A stretch of DNA of 64,000 nt from an uncultured Clostridia bacterium (lineage in GTDB: Bacteria; Bacillota; Clostridia; TANB77; CAG-508). Shown one piece after another: positions 1 through 9,931 of the stretch (positions within the stretch are counted from its first letter, which is position 1; each line of letters begins with the position of its first letter). The notes beneath the pieces are model-generated. The model worked only from the letters and a program-made list of their open reading frames with translations. It had not been told where the DNA came from and did no database searches. Location of the stretch: the NCBI GenBank assembly GCA_944392425.1, contig CALXWM010000002.1:3346-67345 (forward strand), given 5' to 3'. The position numbers and the translations under genes were made by a program.

Positions 1-174
1 AATTCAAAATTAAAGTTAACAGAAAAGGGAAAACAGTTATATACTGAAATTATCGAAAATAATGATATTATGGTACTTGAAAAAAACGAATTAAATATTA
101 TAAAGGATAAAATAAATGATGATGTTATAAAAAAAATATTAGAAAAATGGGGGGCATCTAATGTTAAAAATTAA
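1..174 (+). CDS. 3' end of a gene truncated by the window edge (57 codons visible, ...KILEKWGASNVKN*)
   Basis: Frame 1 is open from base 1 to TAA at 172-174. It overlaps the ATG at 161 of the next gene by 14 nt, which suggests translational coupling. Confidence 0.4.
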   Translation, partial: NSKLKLTEKGKQLYTEIIENNDIMVLEKNELNIIKDKINDDVIKKILEKWGASNVKN

Positions 175-2206
175 TCGAATTAAATGTATTATCATTACTG
201 CAAATGATGGAAATTTTGGATATGATTATAAATTTGAAACAGGCCTGAATTTAATTTCTAGTACAGAAAATACTAAAGGAAAAAGTTCAATTCTTGAGGC
301 TATTTATTACTGCTTAGGGGTTGAAGAATTATTAGGAGCAGTTGATGAAAAAGCACTGACCCCAGTATATAAGACAGCAATTGATTATAAGGAAAAGAAA
401 AATATAATACCATTGAAAACTATGTTTTATTTAGAGATTACAAATGAAAGAGGAGATATTGTTACTATTAATAGGAATATAGAAAGGTTAGTTAGTAACA
501 AATTAATTAATGTTTACTCTTGTAATTTAGATAATGCTACGAATGGTGAAAGAGATTTTCAAGAAATGTTTGTTAATACAGCAGGAGGAGCTACTTCTGA
601 TAAGGGGTTTCATAAGTTTTTAGAGAAATTTATAGGCTGGAGACTTCCAGTAGTTCCATCTTTTGAAGAGAAAGACAGAAAATTATATTTGCAAACTCTA
701 TTTTCTGCAATGTTTATTGAGCAAAAAAGAGGGTGGTCTAATTTACTGGCTACTATTCCAAATTATGGAATTAAAGACTCGAAAACTAAGGTTATTGAAT
801 ATATTTTAAATTTAGATACAATAGAAAACGAAAGACTTAAAATAGAATGTAAAATTGAAGAATCAATAATAAAACAAAAATGGAAAAAAGTCATAGAGAA
901 TATAACTGACTTATTAAGTTCAGAAAATTGTGTAATAAGAAATTTATTTGAAAATCCCAGAATAATAGATGAGAATAATTTAAAGCAAATGACTCTTTTT
1001 AAAAGATATAATGAAGAAGAAAAAGAGTTAAAAAAATATATTGAAGAAAGAAATAAAAAAGCTAAAAGTTTGTCTCAACAAAGTTTAAAGGTTGGAAAAA
1101 ATATTGAAGAATTAGAAGAAAATTTAAAGAAATTACAAAATGAACTTCAGGAGAAATTTGAAAGAAGACAACAAAAGAAAAGAGAATCAATATTAGAAGA
1201 GAAAGCAATAGATAAATTGATTGAAAGTTTAGAAATTATAAATAAGGATTTAAATTCTAACAAAGATATCAATAAACTAAAAGGATTAGGAGCTTTGAAA
1301 ACTAGTTGCTTATCAAAAGACATCTGTCCTACATGTAAACAAAATATCAAAGATTATTTATTAGAACAAAATTTAATTAATAGAATTATGAATGTAGATG
1401 AACAAATTCAACACCTTTCAGATCAAAAAAAGATGGTGGAATTCTCATTAAGGTCACACAAAAGTAATCTTTTAAATATTCAAGAAGATTTAAAAATTCT
1501 GGAAACTGAAATTACTAAAAAAACAAAAGATATTAGACGAATAGTTAATGACATATATTCAACAGATGAGTGCCTTTCAACTTCAATAGTATATGAAAAA
1601 TTGAATATAGAAAATGAAGTTGAAAGATTATTAGAAATGGAAAAGAGAATAGAATACTATAAAAAAGAATTATTAACAGTTTCTAATGATTGGGCAAGTT
1701 ATTTAGAAAAAAAATCAAAATTACCTAAAGGAATTTTTTCAGAGGATGATTTAAAAAAAATAAATGAATTGAAAAATGAGTTTATAAAGAAAATAGAAAA
1801 TTATAATTATTCAAGTAATCAAAACATATATGATATAGAGATTTCAAAGGACAAGTTAATGCCAACATTGAATGGGTTTGATTTGATAAAGGATGGATCT
1901 GGAAGTGATTTAATAAGAATAATTTGGGGATTTACATTATCATTATTAGCTGTTTCAAATAAAAATGATGGAAATCATTCAAAGCTAGTAATAATTGATG
2001 AGCCCGCACAACAAAGCATTGAAAATAAGGATTTATATAGCTTTATTGATGACTTAATTAATAATTTTGATAATTCGCAAATCATTATGGCAATCACATT
2101 AAATAATTTAGAATTACAAAATTATGTAAGAAATAAAGATAATTTAAATATAGTGTTGATAGAAGATAAAGCTGTAAAACCGTTGGATAAGCTTGAACAA
2201 GAGTGA
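161..2206 (+). CDS. SMC/Rad50-like ABC ATPase with central coiled coil and CxxC hook (LmuB/DUF3732-like architecture)
   Basis: N-terminal Walker A-like STENTKGKSS followed by ILEAIYYCLG. Long K/E/L-rich heptad-like middle with CPTC at aa 389-392. C-terminal GSGSD signature-like motif and Walker B LVIIDEPAQQ. Confidence 0.7.
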   Translation: MLKINRIKCIIITANDGNFGYDYKFETGLNLISSTENTKGKSSILEAIYYCLGVEELLGAVDEKALTPVYKTAIDYKEKKNIIPLKTMFYLEITNERGDIVTINRNIERLVSNKLINVYSCNLDNATNGERDFQEMFVNTAGGATSDKGFHKFLEKFIGWRLPVVPSFEEKDRKLYLQTLFSAMFIEQKRGWSNLLATIPNYGIKDSKTKVIEYILNLDTIENERLKIECKIEESIIKQKWKKVIENITDLLSSENCVIRNLFENPRIIDENNLKQMTLFKRYNEEEKELKKYIEERNKKAKSLSQQSLKVGKNIEELEENLKKLQNELQEKFERRQQKKRESILEEKAIDKLIESLEIINKDLNSNKDINKLKGLGALKTSCLSKDICPTCKQNIKDYLLEQNLINRIMNVDEQIQHLSDQKKMVEFSLRSHKSNLLNIQEDLKILETEITKKTKDIRRIVNDIYSTDECLSTSIVYEKLNIENEVERLLEMEKRIEYYKKELLTVSNDWASYLEKKSKLPKGIFSEDDLKKINELKNEFIKKIENYNYSSNQNIYDIEISKDKLMPTLNGFDLIKDGSGSDLIRIIWGFTLSLLAVSNKNDGNHSKLVIIDEPAQQSIENKDLYSFIDDLINNFDNSQIIMAITLNNLELQNYVRNKDNLNIVLIEDKAVKPLDKLEQE

Positions 2207-2249
2207 TATTATGTAAGTGAAAAATATTAGAATAAATATAGGAGTACGT

Positions 2250-2438
2250 ATGAAAATAAAATGTTTATTATGTGAAGATATAATTTAATCAAAAAGTGTG
2301 CATGATTTAGTAACTTGCAAATGTGAATCATGTTATATTGATGGCGGAAATTATTATTTACATATAGGAGCAAAATATTTTGACAAAGTAGTTAAAATAT
2401 TGCAAGATGGTAGTAAAGTTAAATTAAATAGAAAGTAA
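2250..2438 (+). pseudogene. Small zinc-ribbon protein gene interrupted by an in-frame TAA (MKIKCLLCEDII*SKSVHDLVTCKCESCYIDGGNYYLHIGAKYFDKVVKILQDGSKVKLNRK*)
   Basis: RBS GGAG lies 8 nt upstream of ATG 2250. TAA at 2286-2288 is followed by 49 further open codons in the same frame. The CxxC...CxCxxC pattern spans the stop. Confidence 0.5.
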
Positions 2439-2540
2439 ACTAAATAAAGCTAAATACTTAATAATTATTTTAATAATATTAGTTATTTTGTTTTTGGGGG
2501 AGTTAAATGGAAACAAAATTATTGTTGATTAGGAGAAAAT

Positions 2541-3209
2541 ATGAGTGTAGAAAGTATAGTAAATATAATAACATCTATTATAATGTGTGTGGCAACGGTA
2601 GTATCGGTTGTAATAGCGGTAATTGCAATAAAACAGACAAAAATTCAAATGGAGTTAAGTAATAAAAATAATTTATTTTCAAATAGAGTTAAAGGATACC
2701 TTATAATAAAAGGTTTATTAAATCTATATAACCAAAATAAAAAAGATATTGAAGAAGAAAAAGAAGATAAAATATACTTTAAAGTTGACCCTTTATTTTA
2801 TGGATTGATAAACAATTCATATCTTGAGAATATGGGCACTGTAATAGAAGAACCTTTACATGATCCTGAGCATAAAAATTTTTTGACATCACTAGAAAAA
2901 TTAAAGAATCAAGCTGAAAAAATGAGATTTTTATTTGAAAATAAAATTGGTATTTATGCAAAAAACTTTATATTAAAATATGCAGATGTATTAATGAAGT
3001 TATATCAATACAAAATATTAATTATAAAAATGAGAGAATATTCAACAACATATCCTATGGTAGATATAAAAAAAGCTGCGGAAGATATGAATGAAATAGA
3101 AAATAGAAAAGAATTATTTAAAGCTTTTGAGAAACTAAGTGAAGAATACAAATTATTAAATAATTATGATTTCGAAACAAAAATAATAGAGGAAATAAAG
3201 TTGAACTAA
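2541..3209 (+). CDS. Membrane-anchored helical protein of unknown function (single N-terminal TM helix)
   Basis: RBS AGGAGA precedes the ATG. Hydrophobic segment IVNIITSIIMCVATVVSVVIAVIAI, then about 190 aa of K/E-rich helical-looking sequence. It sits 41 nt upstream of the next gene. Confidence 0.6.
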   Translation: MSVESIVNIITSIIMCVATVVSVVIAVIAIKQTKIQMELSNKNNLFSNRVKGYLIIKGLLNLYNQNKKDIEEEKEDKIYFKVDPLFYGLINNSYLENMGTVIEEPLHDPEHKNFLTSLEKLKNQAEKMRFLFENKIGIYAKNFILKYADVLMKLYQYKILIIKMREYSTTYPMVDIKKAAEDMNEIENRKELFKAFEKLSEEYKLLNNYDFETKIIEEIKLN

Positions 3210-3250
3210 AAAATTTGTTTTTAAAAGTATAAATAAAAAAGGAGTTATTA

Positions 3251-5461
3251 ATGAATATTAAGTTTAGGAAGCTAGTCGTATCAAATCGATTTCACACTTC
3301 ATTTGAAGAATGGAATACTAATAATGAAATAGAATTTTCAAATTCTGGTTTCGCAGATATATATGCACCTAATGGCGTAGGAAAATCAAGTTTAGCGAAA
3401 GCCTTAAAAAATGAGATAAAATCGGAATATGAATATGAATATAACGGTAATATTTATACAGAAAAATCAAACGACAATCCTATAATTGTTATTGATGATT
3501 TTTTCTTTAGAAATATTGCATCACGAGAAAATGAAAAAATATCTGATTATATTTTAGGGTCTCAAATAAATAAGGAATTAGAATTAAAAGAAAAAATTGA
3601 TAATATAATAGAAGGAGTTAAGGGCAGTGTAATAGCATATTTAAAGGATGTGTATGGAATTAAAAGCAAAAACAGCAATTTGTGTAACTTGGTGGATGAT
3701 GAGAATTTTAAAAAATTTATTAGTGCACTAGCTAATAATAGAGATAAGGGAAAAGATTATGATGCTGAAAAAATATTAAAAGCAGTTAATGGGTTTAATG
3801 TTAATGATAATATGACATTAGAAGAAGATAAATTTTATTATGTAAAAACTAATTTAGAAGCGAATAATTCAATAATAAAGGATATTATAGAATTTGATAC
3901 AAGTAATTTTAATAAAATAGAACAGTTTAAAAAGATAGATATAGATAGTGATGCTATAAAGATATTGGAAAAGCACAAGGGAATTACTACATGTATTTTT
4001 GAGGAGAGTCACAAGTTGCCAAATGGTATAAAAGAACAGTTAGAAAAAAATAGAGAAACGATAGTAAGCCAACTAACACCAAAACAAAAAGAAATTACTA
4101 AAAAAATTTTAGAATTAAATAATAATGATCCATTTAATATAAAAGAAATATTTAATAGTGCTTTTGAAAAAGGAAATATAGAAGGAATTGAAAGTTTAAT
4201 TAAAGAATTTAAGTCATATGTTCTAAGTATAAAAAATGAAATATGTAAATATATTTTTAAATTACTGAAAGAAAGCCAGCTAAACGAATTATATTTCGAA
4301 TTAAAAGAATTAATTGATAAAAAAGTTGAGTTAACGGAAGAAGACGAAATTCTCTTAAAAAATATAATTGAGAATTGCTTAAATAAAGAAGTTAAATTCG
4401 AAAGAGATAATAATAAAAATATAATATTTAAATTAAATGATACAGATGTAATAGGTAAAAGTCGACAAGAACTTCCTTTATCGACAGGAGAACAAAATTT
4501 TATATCATTATATTTTGAATTGCTAGCAGCAAAAAATTCAACTAAAGAGATAGTTATAATTGATGATCCTATATCTAGCTTTGATTCAATATATAAAAAC
4601 AAAATAGTTTATGCAATTATAAAAGTTTTAGAAAAAAAGAATACGATTATATTAACCCATAATATTAATACTATAAAATTAATGCAACACCAGTATAAGA
4701 ATTGCTTTAACTTATACCTATTAAATAATGAAAATGACGAAGAAAATGGATTTATTAAAGTAGAGAGAAGATTAAATAATTCAGAAAATTATAGAGATTT
4801 AGATTTGATGCTTGAAATAAAAAATGTAATTCAATTATTTAAAGAAAATTCATTTTTAAATGATGTTAAAAATAAAGAACAATTTATATTATCATTAATA
4901 CCTTTTATGAGGAGTTATTTTAATTTAATACCACAAAAGGAAGAGCATTATAAAAAATTATGCAAGTTAATGCATGGTTATGAAAGTCAAATTATTGATA
5001 TCAATAATGAATATCAAGAATGCTTTGGACAAAATGTAATTGGAAATAACTATAATGTTTCAATAAATGATATATTGCAAACTGAAGTTTCAACTGAAAT
5101 AGTAGATAGAGAAAAATATCCAGTATTAAATAGAGCTTTATATCACTCTTTAAATTATTTAAAAATAAGATTAATGGTTGAAAACACACTATACAATACA
5201 GATTTAAATAAAATAGACAAGAATAAAAATTATCAATTACATCAAATAATAAGTATATATTTAAAGGATAATTATATTTTAAAAGCAATTTTAATCTCAA
5301 AGAAAACATTATTAAATGAATTTAATCATTTTGAATACGATATGTGTTTATTTATGCCTTCTTTAGATATATCTAATAGTAAGTTAAAAGAAGAAAGAGA
5401 GAGCATAATAAGAATATGTAATGAGATACGAACAAAAGGGATAAGTAATATAGATTCATAA
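3251..5461 (+). CDS. PrrC/RloA-like (AAA_13-type) ABC ATPase with an unassigned C-terminal domain of about 250 aa
   Basis: Walker A YAPNGVGKSSLAKAL. Helical insert of about 370 aa. Signature LSTGEQNFISLYFEL, Walker B IVIIDDPISSFD and H-loop IILTHN. RBS AAGGAG. Confidence 0.75.
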   Translation: MNIKFRKLVVSNRFHTSFEEWNTNNEIEFSNSGFADIYAPNGVGKSSLAKALKNEIKSEYEYEYNGNIYTEKSNDNPIIVIDDFFFRNIASRENEKISDYILGSQINKELELKEKIDNIIEGVKGSVIAYLKDVYGIKSKNSNLCNLVDDENFKKFISALANNRDKGKDYDAEKILKAVNGFNVNDNMTLEEDKFYYVKTNLEANNSIIKDIIEFDTSNFNKIEQFKKIDIDSDAIKILEKHKGITTCIFEESHKLPNGIKEQLEKNRETIVSQLTPKQKEITKKILELNNNDPFNIKEIFNSAFEKGNIEGIESLIKEFKSYVLSIKNEICKYIFKLLKESQLNELYFELKELIDKKVELTEEDEILLKNIIENCLNKEVKFERDNNKNIIFKLNDTDVIGKSRQELPLSTGEQNFISLYFELLAAKNSTKEIVIIDDPISSFDSIYKNKIVYAIIKVLEKKNTIILTHNINTIKLMQHQYKNCFNLYLLNNENDEENGFIKVERRLNNSENYRDLDLMLEIKNVIQLFKENSFLNDVKNKEQFILSLIPFMRSYFNLIPQKEEHYKKLCKLMHGYESQIIDINNEYQECFGQNVIGNNYNVSINDILQTEVSTEIVDREKYPVLNRALYHSLNYLKIRLMVENTLYNTDLNKIDKNKNYQLHQIISIYLKDNYILKAILISKKTLLNEFNHFEYDMCLFMPSLDISNSKLKEERESIIRICNEIRTKGISNIDS

Positions 5462-5480
5462 AAAGTAAGGAAAAAAGATA

Positions 5481-5936
5481 ATGAAATTTATAGAATATAA
5501 TTATGATAATAAAGTGCAATATTCAGATTTTATTAGAAAATATAATAAATCTAAATGTTTAAATTCTTTGAACATACAAACCTTTTGCGAAGGAAAAAAG
5601 ATATTTTTAATGGTTGATAAAGGACTTGTTAAAAAGTATAAAATAATAGGTTATGTAATAGTTTATGAGAAACTTAAAACAATATGCATGGTAAATGAAG
5701 TTAGTGAAAACTACGAAGATAATAGTAATGTTGTATTTATTTCAGACTTTATGATAGATTATATATATAGAAAGAAAGGTCTTGGGAAATTTTTGGCTAA
5801 ATACATAATAGATGAAGTATATAGAAAACGAAATATAATATTACAACCAGATGGAGATGGAAATTGGTTTTGGAAAAAGTTTGGATTTAAACCAGATGAG
5901 ATATCAAAGAAATTAACATTAATATTAAAAAGATAA
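5481..5936 (+). CDS. GNAT-family N-acetyltransferase
   Basis: Acetyl-CoA motif A region FISDFMIDYIYRKKGLGKFLAKYII and C-terminal FWKKFGFK. Starts 19 nt after the ATPase gene. Confidence 0.7.
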   Translation: MKFIEYNYDNKVQYSDFIRKYNKSKCLNSLNIQTFCEGKKIFLMVDKGLVKKYKIIGYVIVYEKLKTICMVNEVSENYEDNSNVVFISDFMIDYIYRKKGLGKFLAKYIIDEVYRKRNIILQPDGDGNWFWKKFGFKPDEISKKLTLILKR

Positions 5937-5989
5937 AATATAAAAATATATTTTGTAAAGTTTCTCGATAAATAAAAAAGTACATAAAA

Positions 5990-6027
5990 ATCCAAAGTTT
6001 TTTCAAGATTTTGAAAAAACTTTGGAT
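5990..6027. terminator. Bidirectional hairpin terminator between convergent genes
   Basis: Perfect 17-bp stem ATCCAAAGTTTTTTCAA / TTGAAAAAACTTTGGAT with a 4-nt loop, flanked by A- and T-runs. Confidence 0.6.
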
Positions 6028-6036
6028 TAATTTTAA

Positions 6037-6330
6037 CTATTTATATAGGCAACCACTAATTAATTCAACGCCATCCACAAATCCATTCCTATAATACTTC
6101 TCATTCCAATAGCAGATATAATCCATAAAATTCTTATCAAGTCTATCTAATTGACTTTTCACATATTTTTGATTCTGCTTAGGAACATTCTTTAAAATAC
6201 TTTCACAAATTTCATCAAAATAAATATAATGTTTTTTATCTTCTTTAGTAAGTGTTCCTAAAACCATTTCCTCTCTAAAACTTAACCAATCCCTTAAAAT
6301 ATCATCATTAACTTCTCTAAAATTATTCAT
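6037..6330 (-). CDS. Small hypothetical protein (97 aa)
   Basis: ORF with RBS GGAGG upstream (plus-strand cctcc at about 6343). No family recognised with confidence. Confidence 0.5.
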   Translation of the reverse strand: MNNFREVNDDILRDWLSFREEMVLGTLTKEDKKHYIYFDEICESILKNVPKQNQKYVKSQLDRLDKNFMDYICYWNEKYYRNGFVDGVELISGCLYK

Positions 6331-6714
6331 TAATATTAACCTCCATTTTTATAAATTTTTTAAATTCTACACATCAAAACACTAAAAAACTTACAATAAC
6401 AAACTAAAGAATAGATTGAAATTTCATATGTTTGATGCCTCAAAAAATTGGGGACAAATTGGGGACAATCATTGCAAAAAAGTACATTTTTTAACGATTT
6501 TCATAATCTCACCAATTTGCTATAACCCTATTAAAACCAATAAAAACTCAAGTTAACAAAATTCTTCACAAATTACAATTAAATTCTCATAACCCGAAGG
6601 TCACAAATTAATCCAACCAAATAATCGATAAATTTACAAAATAAACTATATTTCGTAACGAACTTATGCTATAATATACCTATAAAATCCAAAATCATAA
6701 AAGGAGAGAAAACT

Positions 6715-7476
6715 ATGATTTACATTACAGGAGATACCCATGCAGACTTTACCAGATTTTCAACAGATAAATTTCCAATACAAAAAGAAATGACGAAAAA
6801 TGATTATGTTATAATTTGTGGAGATTTCGGTGGAGTTTGGTCATATGAAAAAGAAAGTAATCAAGAAAAATATTGGCTCAATTGGTTAAATGACAAAAAT
6901 TTTACTACATTATTCGTAGACGGAAATCATGAAAATTTTACGCGTTTATATAGCTATCCAGTCCAAGCTTGGCATAATGGTAAAGTTCATAAGATAAGAG
7001 ATTCAGTATTTCATTTAATGAGAGGAGAAATCTTTGACATAGATAATAAAAAATTCTTTGCATTTGGAGGAGCTAAGTCACATGATATTCAAGATGGGAT
7101 TTTAAATATGGAAGAAGAAGAAAAAATCTACACATATAGAAAAAGAGGAGCTTATTTTAGAATTAGAAATTATTCGTGGTGGGACTTAGAGCTTTCAACA
7201 AAAGAAGAGATGCAAAATGGGTTAAATAATCTAGAAAAGGCAAATTATAAAGTAGATTATATTATAACTCATTGTGCCCCAACAAATGTACAAGCATTAC
7301 TTGGTGGAGGAGCATATAAAAAGGACTATTTAACAGATTATTTGCAAGAGATATCTGAAAAATGTGATTTCAAAAAATGGTATTTTGGGCATTATCATGA
7401 TAATAAACAAATTGACGCGAAGTACGTGGTTTTATATGAAGATATAGTGCCATTGGAATTTGAAAATATATTTTAA
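6715..7476 (+). CDS. Metallophosphoesterase (calcineurin-like)
   Basis: Motifs GDTHAD, CGDFGG, GNHEN and GHYH. RBS AAGGAGAG. Confidence 0.75.
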   Translation: MIYITGDTHADFTRFSTDKFPIQKEMTKNDYVIICGDFGGVWSYEKESNQEKYWLNWLNDKNFTTLFVDGNHENFTRLYSYPVQAWHNGKVHKIRDSVFHLMRGEIFDIDNKKFFAFGGAKSHDIQDGILNMEEEEKIYTYRKRGAYFRIRNYSWWDLELSTKEEMQNGLNNLEKANYKVDYIITHCAPTNVQALLGGGAYKKDYLTDYLQEISEKCDFKKWYFGHYHDNKQIDAKYVVLYEDIVPLEFENIF

Positions 7477-7491
7477 AAGGTAGGTGATTAT

Positions 7492-8034
7492 ATGATTTAT
7501 TTTATTTCGGACACTCATTTTAATCATACGAATATAATTAAATATTGTAATAGACCGTTTAAAGATGTCTATGAGATGAATGAAGTTCTAATAGATAATT
7601 GGAATAAAACTATAAATGAAGATGATGAAATTTTTCATTTAGGTGATTTGGCATTAGGTGGAAAAGCAAATTTTAAAGATATAGCTAGAAATCTAAATGG
7701 TAAAAAGTATTTGATAAGAGGTAATCATGATAATTGGAGTGTAGATACATATGAAAGCGTAGGATTTACAGTTCTAAAAAATCCCCCAATAAAACTATCA
7801 AATTATAAATTAGTACTGTCACACGTTCCTGTACAGGATAACCAAATGCCAGAAGGTTTTGTAAATGTTCATGGTCATATACACGATAAAAGTTTATATG
7901 AATGCATAGAAAAATATGATCCTCAACAATTTTCAATAAAGAAACATATAAATATTTCCTGTGATGTAACAAATTTTAAGCCTATTAGCATTGAAGCACT
8001 AAAAGAGAAATATGATTTTGAATTGCGAAAATAG
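7492..8034 (+). CDS. Metallophosphoesterase (small, phage/accessory type)
   Basis: Motifs SDTHFNH, LGDLALGG, RGNHDN and HGHIH. Starts 15 nt after the previous gene. Confidence 0.75.
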   Translation: MIYFISDTHFNHTNIIKYCNRPFKDVYEMNEVLIDNWNKTINEDDEIFHLGDLALGGKANFKDIARNLNGKKYLIRGNHDNWSVDTYESVGFTVLKNPPIKLSNYKLVLSHVPVQDNQMPEGFVNVHGHIHDKSLYECIEKYDPQQFSIKKHINISCDVTNFKPISIEALKEKYDFELRK

Positions 8035-8238: not shown

Positions 8239-9501
8239 TCACGCCAAATACTGTTCTTCCTCACTTTGCCAATCAATATATTTTAATATTTCCTTATTAT
8301 CAACATCTAAATGAATAAAATCCAAAATAGTATCATTAGGAAAACATGATTCACAATAAAATGGCATAATAAAGTGAGGAACAATGCCAATTCTATCTGT
8401 AGCAAGAACTCTGCTTAGTAATTCTTTTGCATCACTTAGAAATACAGGAATATCTGCTTTTTTCAAGGCAAGGAAAAATTTAATAGTTTCAATTGATCTA
8501 TTATAAGATTTTCCAGCTACTCTAAAGTAATATCCATATTCATCATGCATGACATATAATGAAACATGTGTCGAATTGCCTCCTCTGCAGACTTCCCAAG
8601 GGTGACCACCAAATCGAGTTTGGTCATTATACCATCTATCAAATTCTTCAAAGGAATTTTCATCAATATCTTTTAAACCATCATCTCTTCCATCAGCATT
8701 TTCATAATACAATTCTTTAGGTGTTAAAGTTTCACAATTCGGATAATTATTTGCCTTATAACCTAAATAACAATAATAATAAAACTTCCCCGATGTCATT
8801 TTAGATATTCTACCAATCAATTTACTTGCTCTATATTTTACTTTCATATCTTTTTGCATATTCTCTTGCAAGGATACGAAATATTTTAATTCATCTATTT
8901 CTGACTGTGAAAAGTTGCTAAAATAATCTTCCTTGGCATCAGGATATACTTTCCAAAAATCACTTCTTTTTATTGTACCATACCTATTTTCAAATGGTAA
9001 ATTGTTTTTAACATAATCATTGTAAAATTCTTTTTCCATCTTATCTAAACAATACTTAACAGAATGAATTATTGTCTCAATAAGATAACTTATATTCATC
9101 TCGAATCCAGTAGTTTCAATATTAGGAGATTGAGCAATTAGCTTGCTATTTAAAAAAATTGCTCTAAATTCTTTATCGTCCTTTTGCATAAAAGATATTG
9201 TGCTTAATTTGTACCAGTAAATATCATTTGGATAATCTCTTTTCCACATTGTTTCAAACTCTTTATAATTTGAAACAATTTCATCCTGAACGAATTCTTC
9301 ATAATTACCATAGTCAGAAATATTTCCTCTAGGTATAGTAATCCAAAGCTCATGCAAATTATCCTCTCCACAAGGTTTAATTTTATCTAAAATTTCATAC
9401 ATAGAATTTATTAAATCCCATGTATTTTTATCAAATCGCATTTTACTATGATTTAAGTAGTTAATGTAGTTGTCTATTTGTGGTGCTGAAAGTAAATTCA
9501 A
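8239..9501 (-). CDS. Hypothetical protein (420 aa), no recognisable domain
   Basis: Long ORF with RBS GGAGAGG upstream on the minus strand. Confidence 0.6.
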   Translation of the reverse strand: MNLLSAPQIDNYINYLNHSKMRFDKNTWDLINSMYEILDKIKPCGEDNLHELWITIPRGNISDYGNYEEFVQDEIVSNYKEFETMWKRDYPNDIYWYKLSTISFMQKDDKEFRAIFLNSKLIAQSPNIETTGFEMNISYLIETIIHSVKYCLDKMEKEFYNDYVKNNLPFENRYGTIKRSDFWKVYPDAKEDYFSNFSQSEIDELKYFVSLQENMQKDMKVKYRASKLIGRISKMTSGKFYYYCYLGYKANNYPNCETLTPKELYYENADGRDDGLKDIDENSFEEFDRWYNDQTRFGGHPWEVCRGGNSTHVSLYVMHDEYGYYFRVAGKSYNRSIETIKFFLALKKADIPVFLSDAKELLSRVLATDRIGIVPHFIMPFYCESCFPNDTILDFIHLDVDNKEILKYIDWQSEEEQYLA

Positions 9502-9931
9502 AATAATCCTCTCCTTTTTAAAAACTTAATAATGATTAACGAAATATAACATACAGTATAACGAAAAATAATAAAAATGTCAATGGATAAAGTTAAAATA
9601 ATATGAGAAGAAGTGCCAGTATTAGAATTAATTGGGGGATACTGACACTTCTTAAATGAATATTATGGAAGAATAATTTAAGTATTTAGCTTAAATTAAC
9701 ATAATTATAGCACATAACATTTGTCAAATGCTGTCGAAATTTGTCGAGGACAACAAAAAATAACAAAAAAATCTAGAGCTTTTGATAATATTACAAAAAA
9801 TATATTGCAAAAGTATTTGAATTGTTGTAATATAGTTAAGTACACATTGTACAGAGATTGCATGGCTTGAAATAATGTATTTTAAATCTATGCTAAACTC
9901 TAATTTAATAAAGTGATAGGGAGGTATTTTT

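Follow-up and report, generated by a model that had tools for sequence, protein, structure and literature searches.

The stretch of DNA examined here, hereafter the window, comprises 64,000 nucleotides of contig CALXWM010000002.1 from an uncultured Clostridia bacterium, and our subject is a gene near its left end that encodes a 736-aa ATP-binding cassette (ABC) ATPase (3251–5461, + strand). This gene lies between two open reading frames (ORFs) of the same strand, one encoding a 222-aa protein with an N-terminal membrane anchor (2541–3209) and the other a 151-aa protein with the fold of a GNAT acetyltransferase (5481–5936). The spacers are 41 nt between the first two genes and 19 nt between the last two, an AGGAG-like ribosome-binding site precedes each of the three ORFs, and the GC content is 21–26% across positions 1–6000, as compared with mostly 25–35% over the remainder of the window. 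A first-pass annotation had described a tight cluster of three same-strand genes, which the ORFs confirmed, and had proposed that the three form one system in which the ATPase controls the GNAT and/or a membrane effector.

On the basis of its motif order, the ATPase had been assigned to the AAA_13, PrrC/RloA-type clade, and this assignment was borne out by our analysis. The Walker A motif YAPNGVGKSS (K45; 3362–3391), LSTGEQNFISLYFEL, IVIIDDPISSFD and ILTHN were found as previously quoted and are invariant or nearly so in 64 homologues; the ABC signature LSTGEQ, the Walker B/D-loop IVIIDDPISSFD and the H-loop histidine H470 lie within 4472–4660. Pfam AAA_13 (PF13166) matched the protein at 54.3 bits against a gathering score of 36, with the match spanning residues 407–576 only (profile positions 497–668), and the matches in NCBIfam were all to generic ABC models. 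Searches of the sequence and of its family profile against all PDB chains returned only generic ABC and Rad50 head matches, and tblastn with the ATPase against the PLSDB plasmids and the INPHARED phages gave no match.

No named defence system was matched by the ATPase in the PADLOC search, in agreement with the earlier statement that no named system fits the locus. The nearest catalogued models are two untested PADLOC single-gene candidates, PDC-S06 (E = 2.5e-14, 51 bits) and PDC-S46 (E = 9.8e-8, 29 bits), which are likewise large AAA_13-type ATPases predicted from defence islands, and both were matched with superfamily-level scores. The PDC-S46 profile is collinear with residues 24–714 of the 736 residues of the window ATPase (profile positions 18–710 of 719), C-terminal domain included, and is collinear to residue 705 in the family member P0127. 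However, the best score within the family was 66 bits, and since these scores are far below family level, we consider the family of the window ATPase to be a sister of PDC-S46 and PDC-S06 rather than a member.

An exhaustive search of 1.84 billion proteins yielded 339 representatives of this family at E ≤ 1e-3. The best-scoring representatives are nearly all 700–760 aa in length and match over their full length including the C-terminal domain, and the family is a discrete one. Its hosts are taxonomically scattered and include gut Bacillota, Veillonella, Aliivibrio, spirochaetes and a Methanosarcinaceae genome. In an alignment of 64 members (28–64% identity), the ABC residues N41, G42, G44, K45, S411, G413, D438, D439, P440, S442, S443, D445, S446 and H470 are invariant, as are R87 and C248. 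C248 falls in the middle of the insert that separates Walker A from the signature motif, and at this site 57 of the 64 members carry C-[IV]-V-C, a CxxC hook-like motif. The clade of the window ATPase has lost the second hook cysteine (C251) and has histidines at positions 242 and 254, giving C248-x5-H254 (insert centre at 3974–4012); H242, C248 and H254 may represent a Cys/His version of a zinc hook.

The last 250 aa or so of the ATPase had been noted as matching nothing recognizable, and our searches of sequence databases, PDB and Foldseek likewise returned no homologue. This part forms a C-terminal domain of about 240 aa (approximately residues 500–736; 4748–5458), which we regard as a putative RNase-like effector. 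An AlphaFold2 (AF2) model of residues 476–736 reached a predicted local distance difference test (pLDDT) score of 90.3 and showed two strands followed by an all-helical domain. Eight residues of this domain, R554, H575, R640, E644, N689, F691, H693 and D706, are invariant in the 64 sequences. Three of them form the arrangement R640-x3-E644-x48-H693, in which the distance from Glu to His ranges from 44 to 59 residues across the family. Readings of the domain as a PD-(D/E)xK, HNH or HD nuclease were rejected by inspection, as the domain is all-helical and the respective motifs are absent.

The known protein that the ATPase most resembles in its layout is RloC, the Rad50-like anticodon nuclease of Geobacillus kaustophilus and Acinetobacter baylyi, in which an ABC head with a coiled-coil insert bearing a CxxC zinc hook is combined with a nuclease at the C-terminus, characterized by Arg-X3-Glu-X36-52-His (PMC2610378). 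The triad-like residues of the window ATPase fit this pattern, although this is a pattern match only and was made after the fact. Like RloC, the family members are single polypeptides of 700–800 aa with an ABC head and the same order of motifs, their consensus has a long helical insert with a central CxxC, and their genes stand alone, often near restriction-modification (R-M) genes, on mobile elements. For comparison, 22 canonical RloC-like proteins were taken from the weaker matches of our genome scan. The R-x3-E-x44-59-[LLNEFNH] of our family parallels the R-x3-E-x34-52-[FINxYSH] of these proteins, and in both groups a tail of about 40 aa follows. Common to both are hydrophobic residues inside R-x3-E, a gap of 34–59 residues and [hydrophobic]2-N-x-[F/Y]-[S/N]-H, with N-x-x-[S/N]-H as the consensus of our family. 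The hhalign comparison with the canonical RloC-like proteins aligned the ATPase head (residues 378–484) with 99.6% probability, and significant alignment with these proteins was confined to the stretch with the signature, Walker B/D-loop and H-loop (4472–4660). In contrast to the 54 bits over residues 407–576 in the window ATPase, Pfam AAA_13 matched end to end (1–713) at 370–635 bits in the five RloC-like proteins scanned of the 22, and the C-x5-H of the window ATPase differs from the CxxC of RloC.

A fusion of an ABC ATPase to a suicide effector, often encoded beside R-M genes, is also known from PrrC and from other ABC-HEPN proteins (PMC3710099). PrrC of the E. coli prr locus shares with the window ATPase the ABC ATPase followed by a C-terminal effector, the R-x3-E...H pattern and the association with R-M, and the PADLOC PrrC model matches 20 of the 64 family members. 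However, these alignments cover only the ATPase part of the proteins, to about residue 574 at most. PrrC is also a smaller protein of approximately 400 aa without a coiled-coil insert, and its gene is inserted in a type I system, with hsdS on one side and hsdR on the other, whereas the window ATPase has no hsd genes and the R-M systems nearby are mostly type II. The lack of flanking hsd genes, pointed out in the first-pass annotation as a departure from classical prrC, was confirmed for the window and for contig L013, which shares 12 kb of identical sequence with the window and reaches further upstream (here and below, related loci are designated by L and a number). Yet a type II pair, Dcm and Bsp6I, is located upstream on L013, and one distant ATPase homologue does follow hsdR (L034).

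We then compared the gene neighbourhoods of the ATPase. All three genes together recur in only three contexts: in the window and its related contigs L013–16 (ATPase 100% identical), with Lamassu upstream; in L019–22, with MazG and an SLFN helicase upstream, where the ATPase is present and the membrane protein and the GNAT are 95% and 92% identical; and in L105/106, with a HinfI R-M system upstream (ATPase 74%, membrane protein 57%, GNAT 61%). In L108/109, where HinfI R-M is also upstream, an Mrr-like nuclease takes the place of the membrane protein, and the ATPase (79%) is accompanied by an intact GNAT (62%). Intact ATPase genes are found without the membrane protein and with a GNAT pseudogene, degraded by frameshifts and stops, in L001–4 (79%) and L147–149 (74%), both with type II R-M upstream, and with neither partner in L005–8 (64%) and L009–12 (61%), where R-M and further defence genes precede the ATPase gene. 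A type II R-M system is situated immediately upstream in L001, L005, L009, L105, L108 and L147. The reverse arrangement occurs in L107, in which the ATPase is truncated to 527 aa and the membrane protein is missing, with the GNAT remaining intact. Among GTDB genomes and IMG/VR, about 20 more distantly related loci of the family contained no homologue of the membrane protein, of the GNAT or of a 97-aa gene that faces the three genes in the window. Since either the membrane protein or the GNAT is missing, or the GNAT has decayed, beside intact ATPase homologues of 61–79% identity, what stays constant at these loci is the ATPase. The first-pass annotation had named co-occurrence of the three homologues across genomes as a test of its proposal, and this co-occurrence largely fails.

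The context of the ATPase is defensive and mobile throughout. At the distant loci, the neighbours include HaeIII R-M, an EcoRI-type methyltransferase with a GmrSD-like protein, HsdR with TIR, and SNF2 with DUF4391 and a methyltransferase, as well as integrases, recombinases, a SAVED-metallophosphatase and a Ymh (HEPN) protein. Ordinary genes, for example those for aconitase, a sugar epimerase and a subtilase, are found beside the ATPase gene at some of these loci. These ordinary neighbours, the Rad50-like head and hook and the constant presence of mobile-element genes on or near the loci would agree with a role outside defence, namely that of a Rad50/SbcC-like protein for DNA maintenance or mobile-element housekeeping. 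We consider such a role highly improbable, as no Mre11/SbcD-like partner was found, all of the closest models represent defence candidates or defence ATPases, and the family is patchy across phyla and repeatedly adjoins R-M and other defence genes. Moreover, because its neighbours change, the ATPase gene is not fixed in the backbone of an element.

Taken together, these results suggest, with a probability of roughly 0.6, that the 736-aa ATPase acts on its own in abortive infection, in the manner of RloC, and that its effector domain is divergent and may be new. In our best reading, the ATPase gene alone is the functional unit, its product having a Rad50-like ABC head with a Cys-based hook-like motif and a C-terminal effector fused in cis; the gene sits at the end of the cargo of a mobile defence island, behind the type II R-M pair and the complete Lamassu system; and the membrane protein and the GNAT are independent modules of the island that ride along in one sub-lineage and would be at most facultative accessories. 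For the nuclease activity, the trigger and the defence phenotype, we infer the following course, with the gating mechanism taken over from RloC. The ATPase head and the hook would hold the C-terminal effector silent until phage-induced DNA damage, foreign DNA or the failure of neighbouring restriction systems shifted the state of the ATPase. The freed C-terminal domain would then shut down translation, with cleavage of tRNA or another RNA by R640, E644, N689 and H693 as the most likely means.

A number of observations weigh against this proposal, most of them concerning the C-terminal domain. When the C-terminal profile of the family was aligned by hhalign with the C-termini of the 22 RloC-like proteins, the probability was 0.2–0.3%, and in an hmmsearch with an RloC-like hidden Markov model only the ATPase head of the family members was aligned, not the C-terminal domain. 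Foldseek searches of the C-terminal model against PDB and BFVD gave best E values of 0.38–0.79 and template modelling (TM) scores below 0.25. As the first-pass annotation had stated, the HEPN motif Rx4-6H is absent, because no Arg is located 4–6 residues before H693; a Lys is found at −8 and Lys or Arg at −9. The triad-like motif lies about 165 residues past the H-loop, as compared with 66–90 in the RloC-like proteins, and an extra subdomain of about 90 aa with its own invariant R554 and H575 is inserted between the H-loop and the motif. The alignments to Pfam and to the PADLOC PrrC model run out at about residue 575, and our literature search on AAA_13 and PDC-S46/PDC-S06 found no functional study. 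The remaining points suggest that the two partners may matter. The three genes have been kept together at 57–74% identity in L105, that is, across a divergence of 26–43%; the window ATPase lacks the second hook Cys; and a 64% homologue of the membrane protein stands ahead of a different P-loop ATPase (L017/18).

The C-terminal domain is thus not demonstrably homologous to the PrrC/RloC nuclease, and since every test of C-terminal homology failed, we call the ATPase RloC-like in architecture and not a member of the RloC or PrrC family. Because the alignments reach residue 575 or so, R554 and H575 were also considered as the counterparts of the RloC Arg and His; this assignment, although conceivable, was not adopted, because a Glu is lacking at +4 and R554 and H575 are only 21 residues apart. 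One possible explanation for the failed comparisons is that the protein is a defence ATPase whose C-terminal domain is not an RNase but a new effector directed at DNA or protein, a sensor or a non-catalytic regulatory module, the RloC-like triad being coincidental. The lack of any similarity to RloC/PrrC, HEPN or solved structures by profile or fold, in spite of a pLDDT of 90, would be expected in this case, as would the absent Rx4-6H and the invariant R554, H575 and D706 outside the triad. However, the combination of R-x3-E and N-x-F-N-H at RloC-like spacing and at an RloC-like distance from the C-terminus is improbable by chance, even though it was matched post hoc, and the overall architecture including the CxxC hook parallels that of RloC. 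In addition, small all-helical HEPN domains are known to evade both sequence and fold searches (PMC3710099). We therefore regard a non-RNase domain as unlikely, and prefer the reading of the ATPase as a stand-alone gene with an RNase-like effector.

The partner-related points bear on the proposal of the first-pass annotation, according to which the ATPase senses infection and controls the GNAT as a translation toxin and/or a membrane effector. In favour of such a three-gene system, the genes are on one strand with 41- and 19-nt spacers and no recognizable promoter between the first two, the trio is found behind different upstream genes in L019 and L105/106, and the ATPase and the GNAT are also paired in L108/109. 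On the other hand, each partner is also found without the ATPase, and unrelated island genes can be equally close, as exemplified in L110, where a gene ends only 18 nt ahead of the GNAT. It is most economical to assume that the adjacency of the membrane gene and the GNAT was inherited in one sub-lineage and repeatedly lost, with the ATPase retained. A facultative functional link among the three is conceivable, because the trio survives the divergence between the window and L105. The distributions of the two partners, described next, add to the evidence against an obligate three-gene system, which we judge to be quite improbable.

The membrane anchor ascribed to the 222-aa protein by the first-pass annotation is well supported: a hydrophobic segment covers approximately residues 6–29, with a 19-residue Kyte-Doolittle mean of 2.91, and a hydrophobic N-terminus is kept in nearly all of the 26 relatives checked. 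The protein has no match in Pfam, NCBIfam or PADLOC, nor any by tblastn in the INPHARED phages. Its family appeared orphan-like at first, with five clusters, and profile-guided scans added 27 loci. More than half of these (15 of 27; L117, L119 and L122–L134) are type I R-M loci, so that the family is found mostly in type I R-M operons. In 13 of the 15, the gene is situated just upstream of hsdR, 5–13 nt away at intact junctions, and between hsdS and hsdR wherever the contig shows both; in the other two it lies just before hsdS. The family gene thus holds the same kind of position as prrC. Other loci have AbiH or a Shedu-like protein nearby, and six are on viral contigs. In L017 (5955–6188) and L018 (1609–1818), the N-terminus of the different P-loop ATPase mentioned above begins 131 nt after the 64% homologue; it carries GYNGIGKSS and matches AAA_15/AAA_23 weakly, and both contigs stop within its gene. 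This arrangement also makes a functional tie between the membrane protein and its neighbours conceivable. In L023, a 39% homologue has nothing coding downstream. 

The identification of the 151-aa protein as a GNAT, made by the first-pass annotation, is weak by sequence (Acetyltransf_1, 22.6 bits against a cut-off of 20.7) and confident by the modelled fold. The protein carries YRKKGLGKF as motif A, and its AF2 model, with a pLDDT of 94.7, gave 311 GNAT-fold PDB matches in Foldseek at E ≤ 1e-3. Like the GNAT toxins TacT, AtaT, KacT and ItaT, it has the GNAT fold with motif A, and its best structural matches include KacT, TacT and AtaT (E approximately 2e-6, TM 0.52–0.64), which would favour a translation toxin. 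However, PaiA, a Lactobacillus GNAT, Naa50/60 and GCN5 match equally well (E 1e-7 to 1e-5 and TM 0.5–0.64 for the matches to PaiA, the Lactobacillus GNAT, KacT, TacT, AtaT, Naa60 and GCN5), and the modelled fold appears generic, not specifically nearer to TacT/AtaT than to other GNATs. The sequence profile is nearest to small-molecule GNATs. W131, in the conserved C-terminal FWKKFGF, stands where such toxins would be expected to have their catalytic Tyr, a placement made by reading the sequence. Unlike the toxins, the window GNAT has no adjoining antitoxin gene of the ribbon-helix-helix (RHH)/DUF1778 type, its flanks being the ATPase gene upstream and the convergent 97-aa gene. With neither an antitoxin gene nor any specific structural closeness, the link to TacT/AtaT-type toxins raised in the first-pass annotation was not supported.

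The GNAT family comprises 81 clusters at 45–99% identity, and its neighbours in other contexts are a DpnII-MboI-like protein, T5orf172 or an unannotated 163-aa protein. In L110–L114, a 66% homologue (6001–6471) follows a DpnII-MboI-like gene by 18 nt, without any AAA_13 ATPase, in an island with Gabija, DpnII-like, T5orf172 and AbiJ-like (PDC-S32) genes near the 97-aa gene and TnpV. The GNAT may be a recurrent passenger of this hot spot with a role of its own. We also considered that the GNAT and the 97-aa gene could be the backbone of an element, with the ATPase merely as the last cargo; the identities across contexts did not decide this point. No GNAT homologue was found in a scan of IMG/VR, and among the papers on GNATs in defence islands, judged by title and abstract, none looked relevant.

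A further reading combines the doubts about the C-terminal domain with the distribution of the 222-aa family. According to it, the C-terminal domain would be a new, non-HEPN effector fold under a Rad50-like hook ATPase, and the 222-aa family would be an undescribed, restriction-linked one that might serve as a membrane effector or regulator plugging into different DNA-dependent ATPase motors, at most loci HsdR but, here and in L017, ABC ATPases that are RloC-like or of another kind. We hold this joint reading to be doubtful; if it were true, the trio of the window would exemplify a modular partnership on which the ATPase does not depend. If, as we prefer, the ATPase gene works alone and in an RloC-like way, the suicide nucleases of the PrrC/RloC class, which are gated by an ATPase, would gain a lineage whose effector domain is beyond recognition by present sequence and fold searches, and the protein would offer a natural test case for the gating of a toxic domain by a Rad50-like hook ATPase. 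The close spacing of same-strand genes in a defence island says little in favour of a multi-gene system, as the three genes are separately distributed here. The membrane-anchored family whose genes directly precede hsdR in many type I R-M loci is worth separate attention.

The first-pass annotation had viewed an SMC-like ATPase gene directly upstream as a sign of a defence island, and this view proved correct. The gene (161–2206, + strand), which is context and lies outside the proposed unit, encodes LmuB of the Lamassu system (PADLOC PDLC03863, E = 1.1e-94). Beyond the start of the window, L013 carries LmuA (9.5e-29) and LmuC (2.1e-21) directly upstream of LmuB, and the Lamassu operon (LmuA, LmuC, LmuB) is complete. 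The Dcm and Bsp6I genes are located a few kb upstream of LmuB on L013, just beyond the window start, and the window begins within a larger island. The order of genes at 1–8956 of L013 is an IstB/DnaC-like replication gene, ASCH, the Dcm methylase, a helix-turn-helix gene, the Bsp6I endonuclease, two unknowns, LmuA, LmuC and LmuB. Between LmuB and the membrane gene lies an inactivated gene for a DUF7695 (PF24749) zinc-ribbon protein (2250–2438, + strand), in which the alignment shows a change of GAA to the nonsense codon TAA at 2286–2288. Its homologues are intact in L019 (62 aa) and L001 (61 aa), where the gene is located ahead of the membrane gene and directly ahead of the ATPase gene, respectively.

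On the right side, a hairpin of 18 pairs with a 4-nt loop is located at 5989–6028, between the GNAT gene and the converging 97-aa gene (6037–6330, − strand), and its T-run is clearer on the − strand. The first-pass annotation had reported a terminator that closes the three-gene cassette. The hairpin itself was confirmed, and it probably acts as a bidirectional terminator of the convergent junction. It does not close the cassette: the hairpin accompanies the 97-aa gene in L019 and L001, and since the copy in L001 follows a different + strand gene, it is a feature of the junction. By tblastn, the 97-aa gene was found at 44–88% identity in L019, L001–L003, L005–L012 and L105–L114, often adjoining TnpV, and in most related contexts it delimits the cargo region on the right; no convincing homologue was found in L147. 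Its product has no family assignment, and its library matches contain no RHH/DUF1778-type domain. The 97-aa gene and the hairpin may mark the boundary of an insertion hot spot, Tn4451-like or belonging to an integrative element. Rfam and tRNA scans of the window gave no match. In L001, a 289-aa gene that follows the ATPase gene (8710–9579) matches the PADLOC candidate PDC-S32 (1.6e-46), and in L147 a gene of the same size (8692–9561) occupies the corresponding position; the GNAT is decayed at both loci. Just past the edge of the island in the window, two calcineurin-like metallophosphoesterases are encoded in tandem at 6715–8034, the first with a weak match to PADLOC PDC-S10 (1.6e-8), and metallophosphatase genes are also present within the related islands of L040, where the gene is fused to SAVED, and L147.

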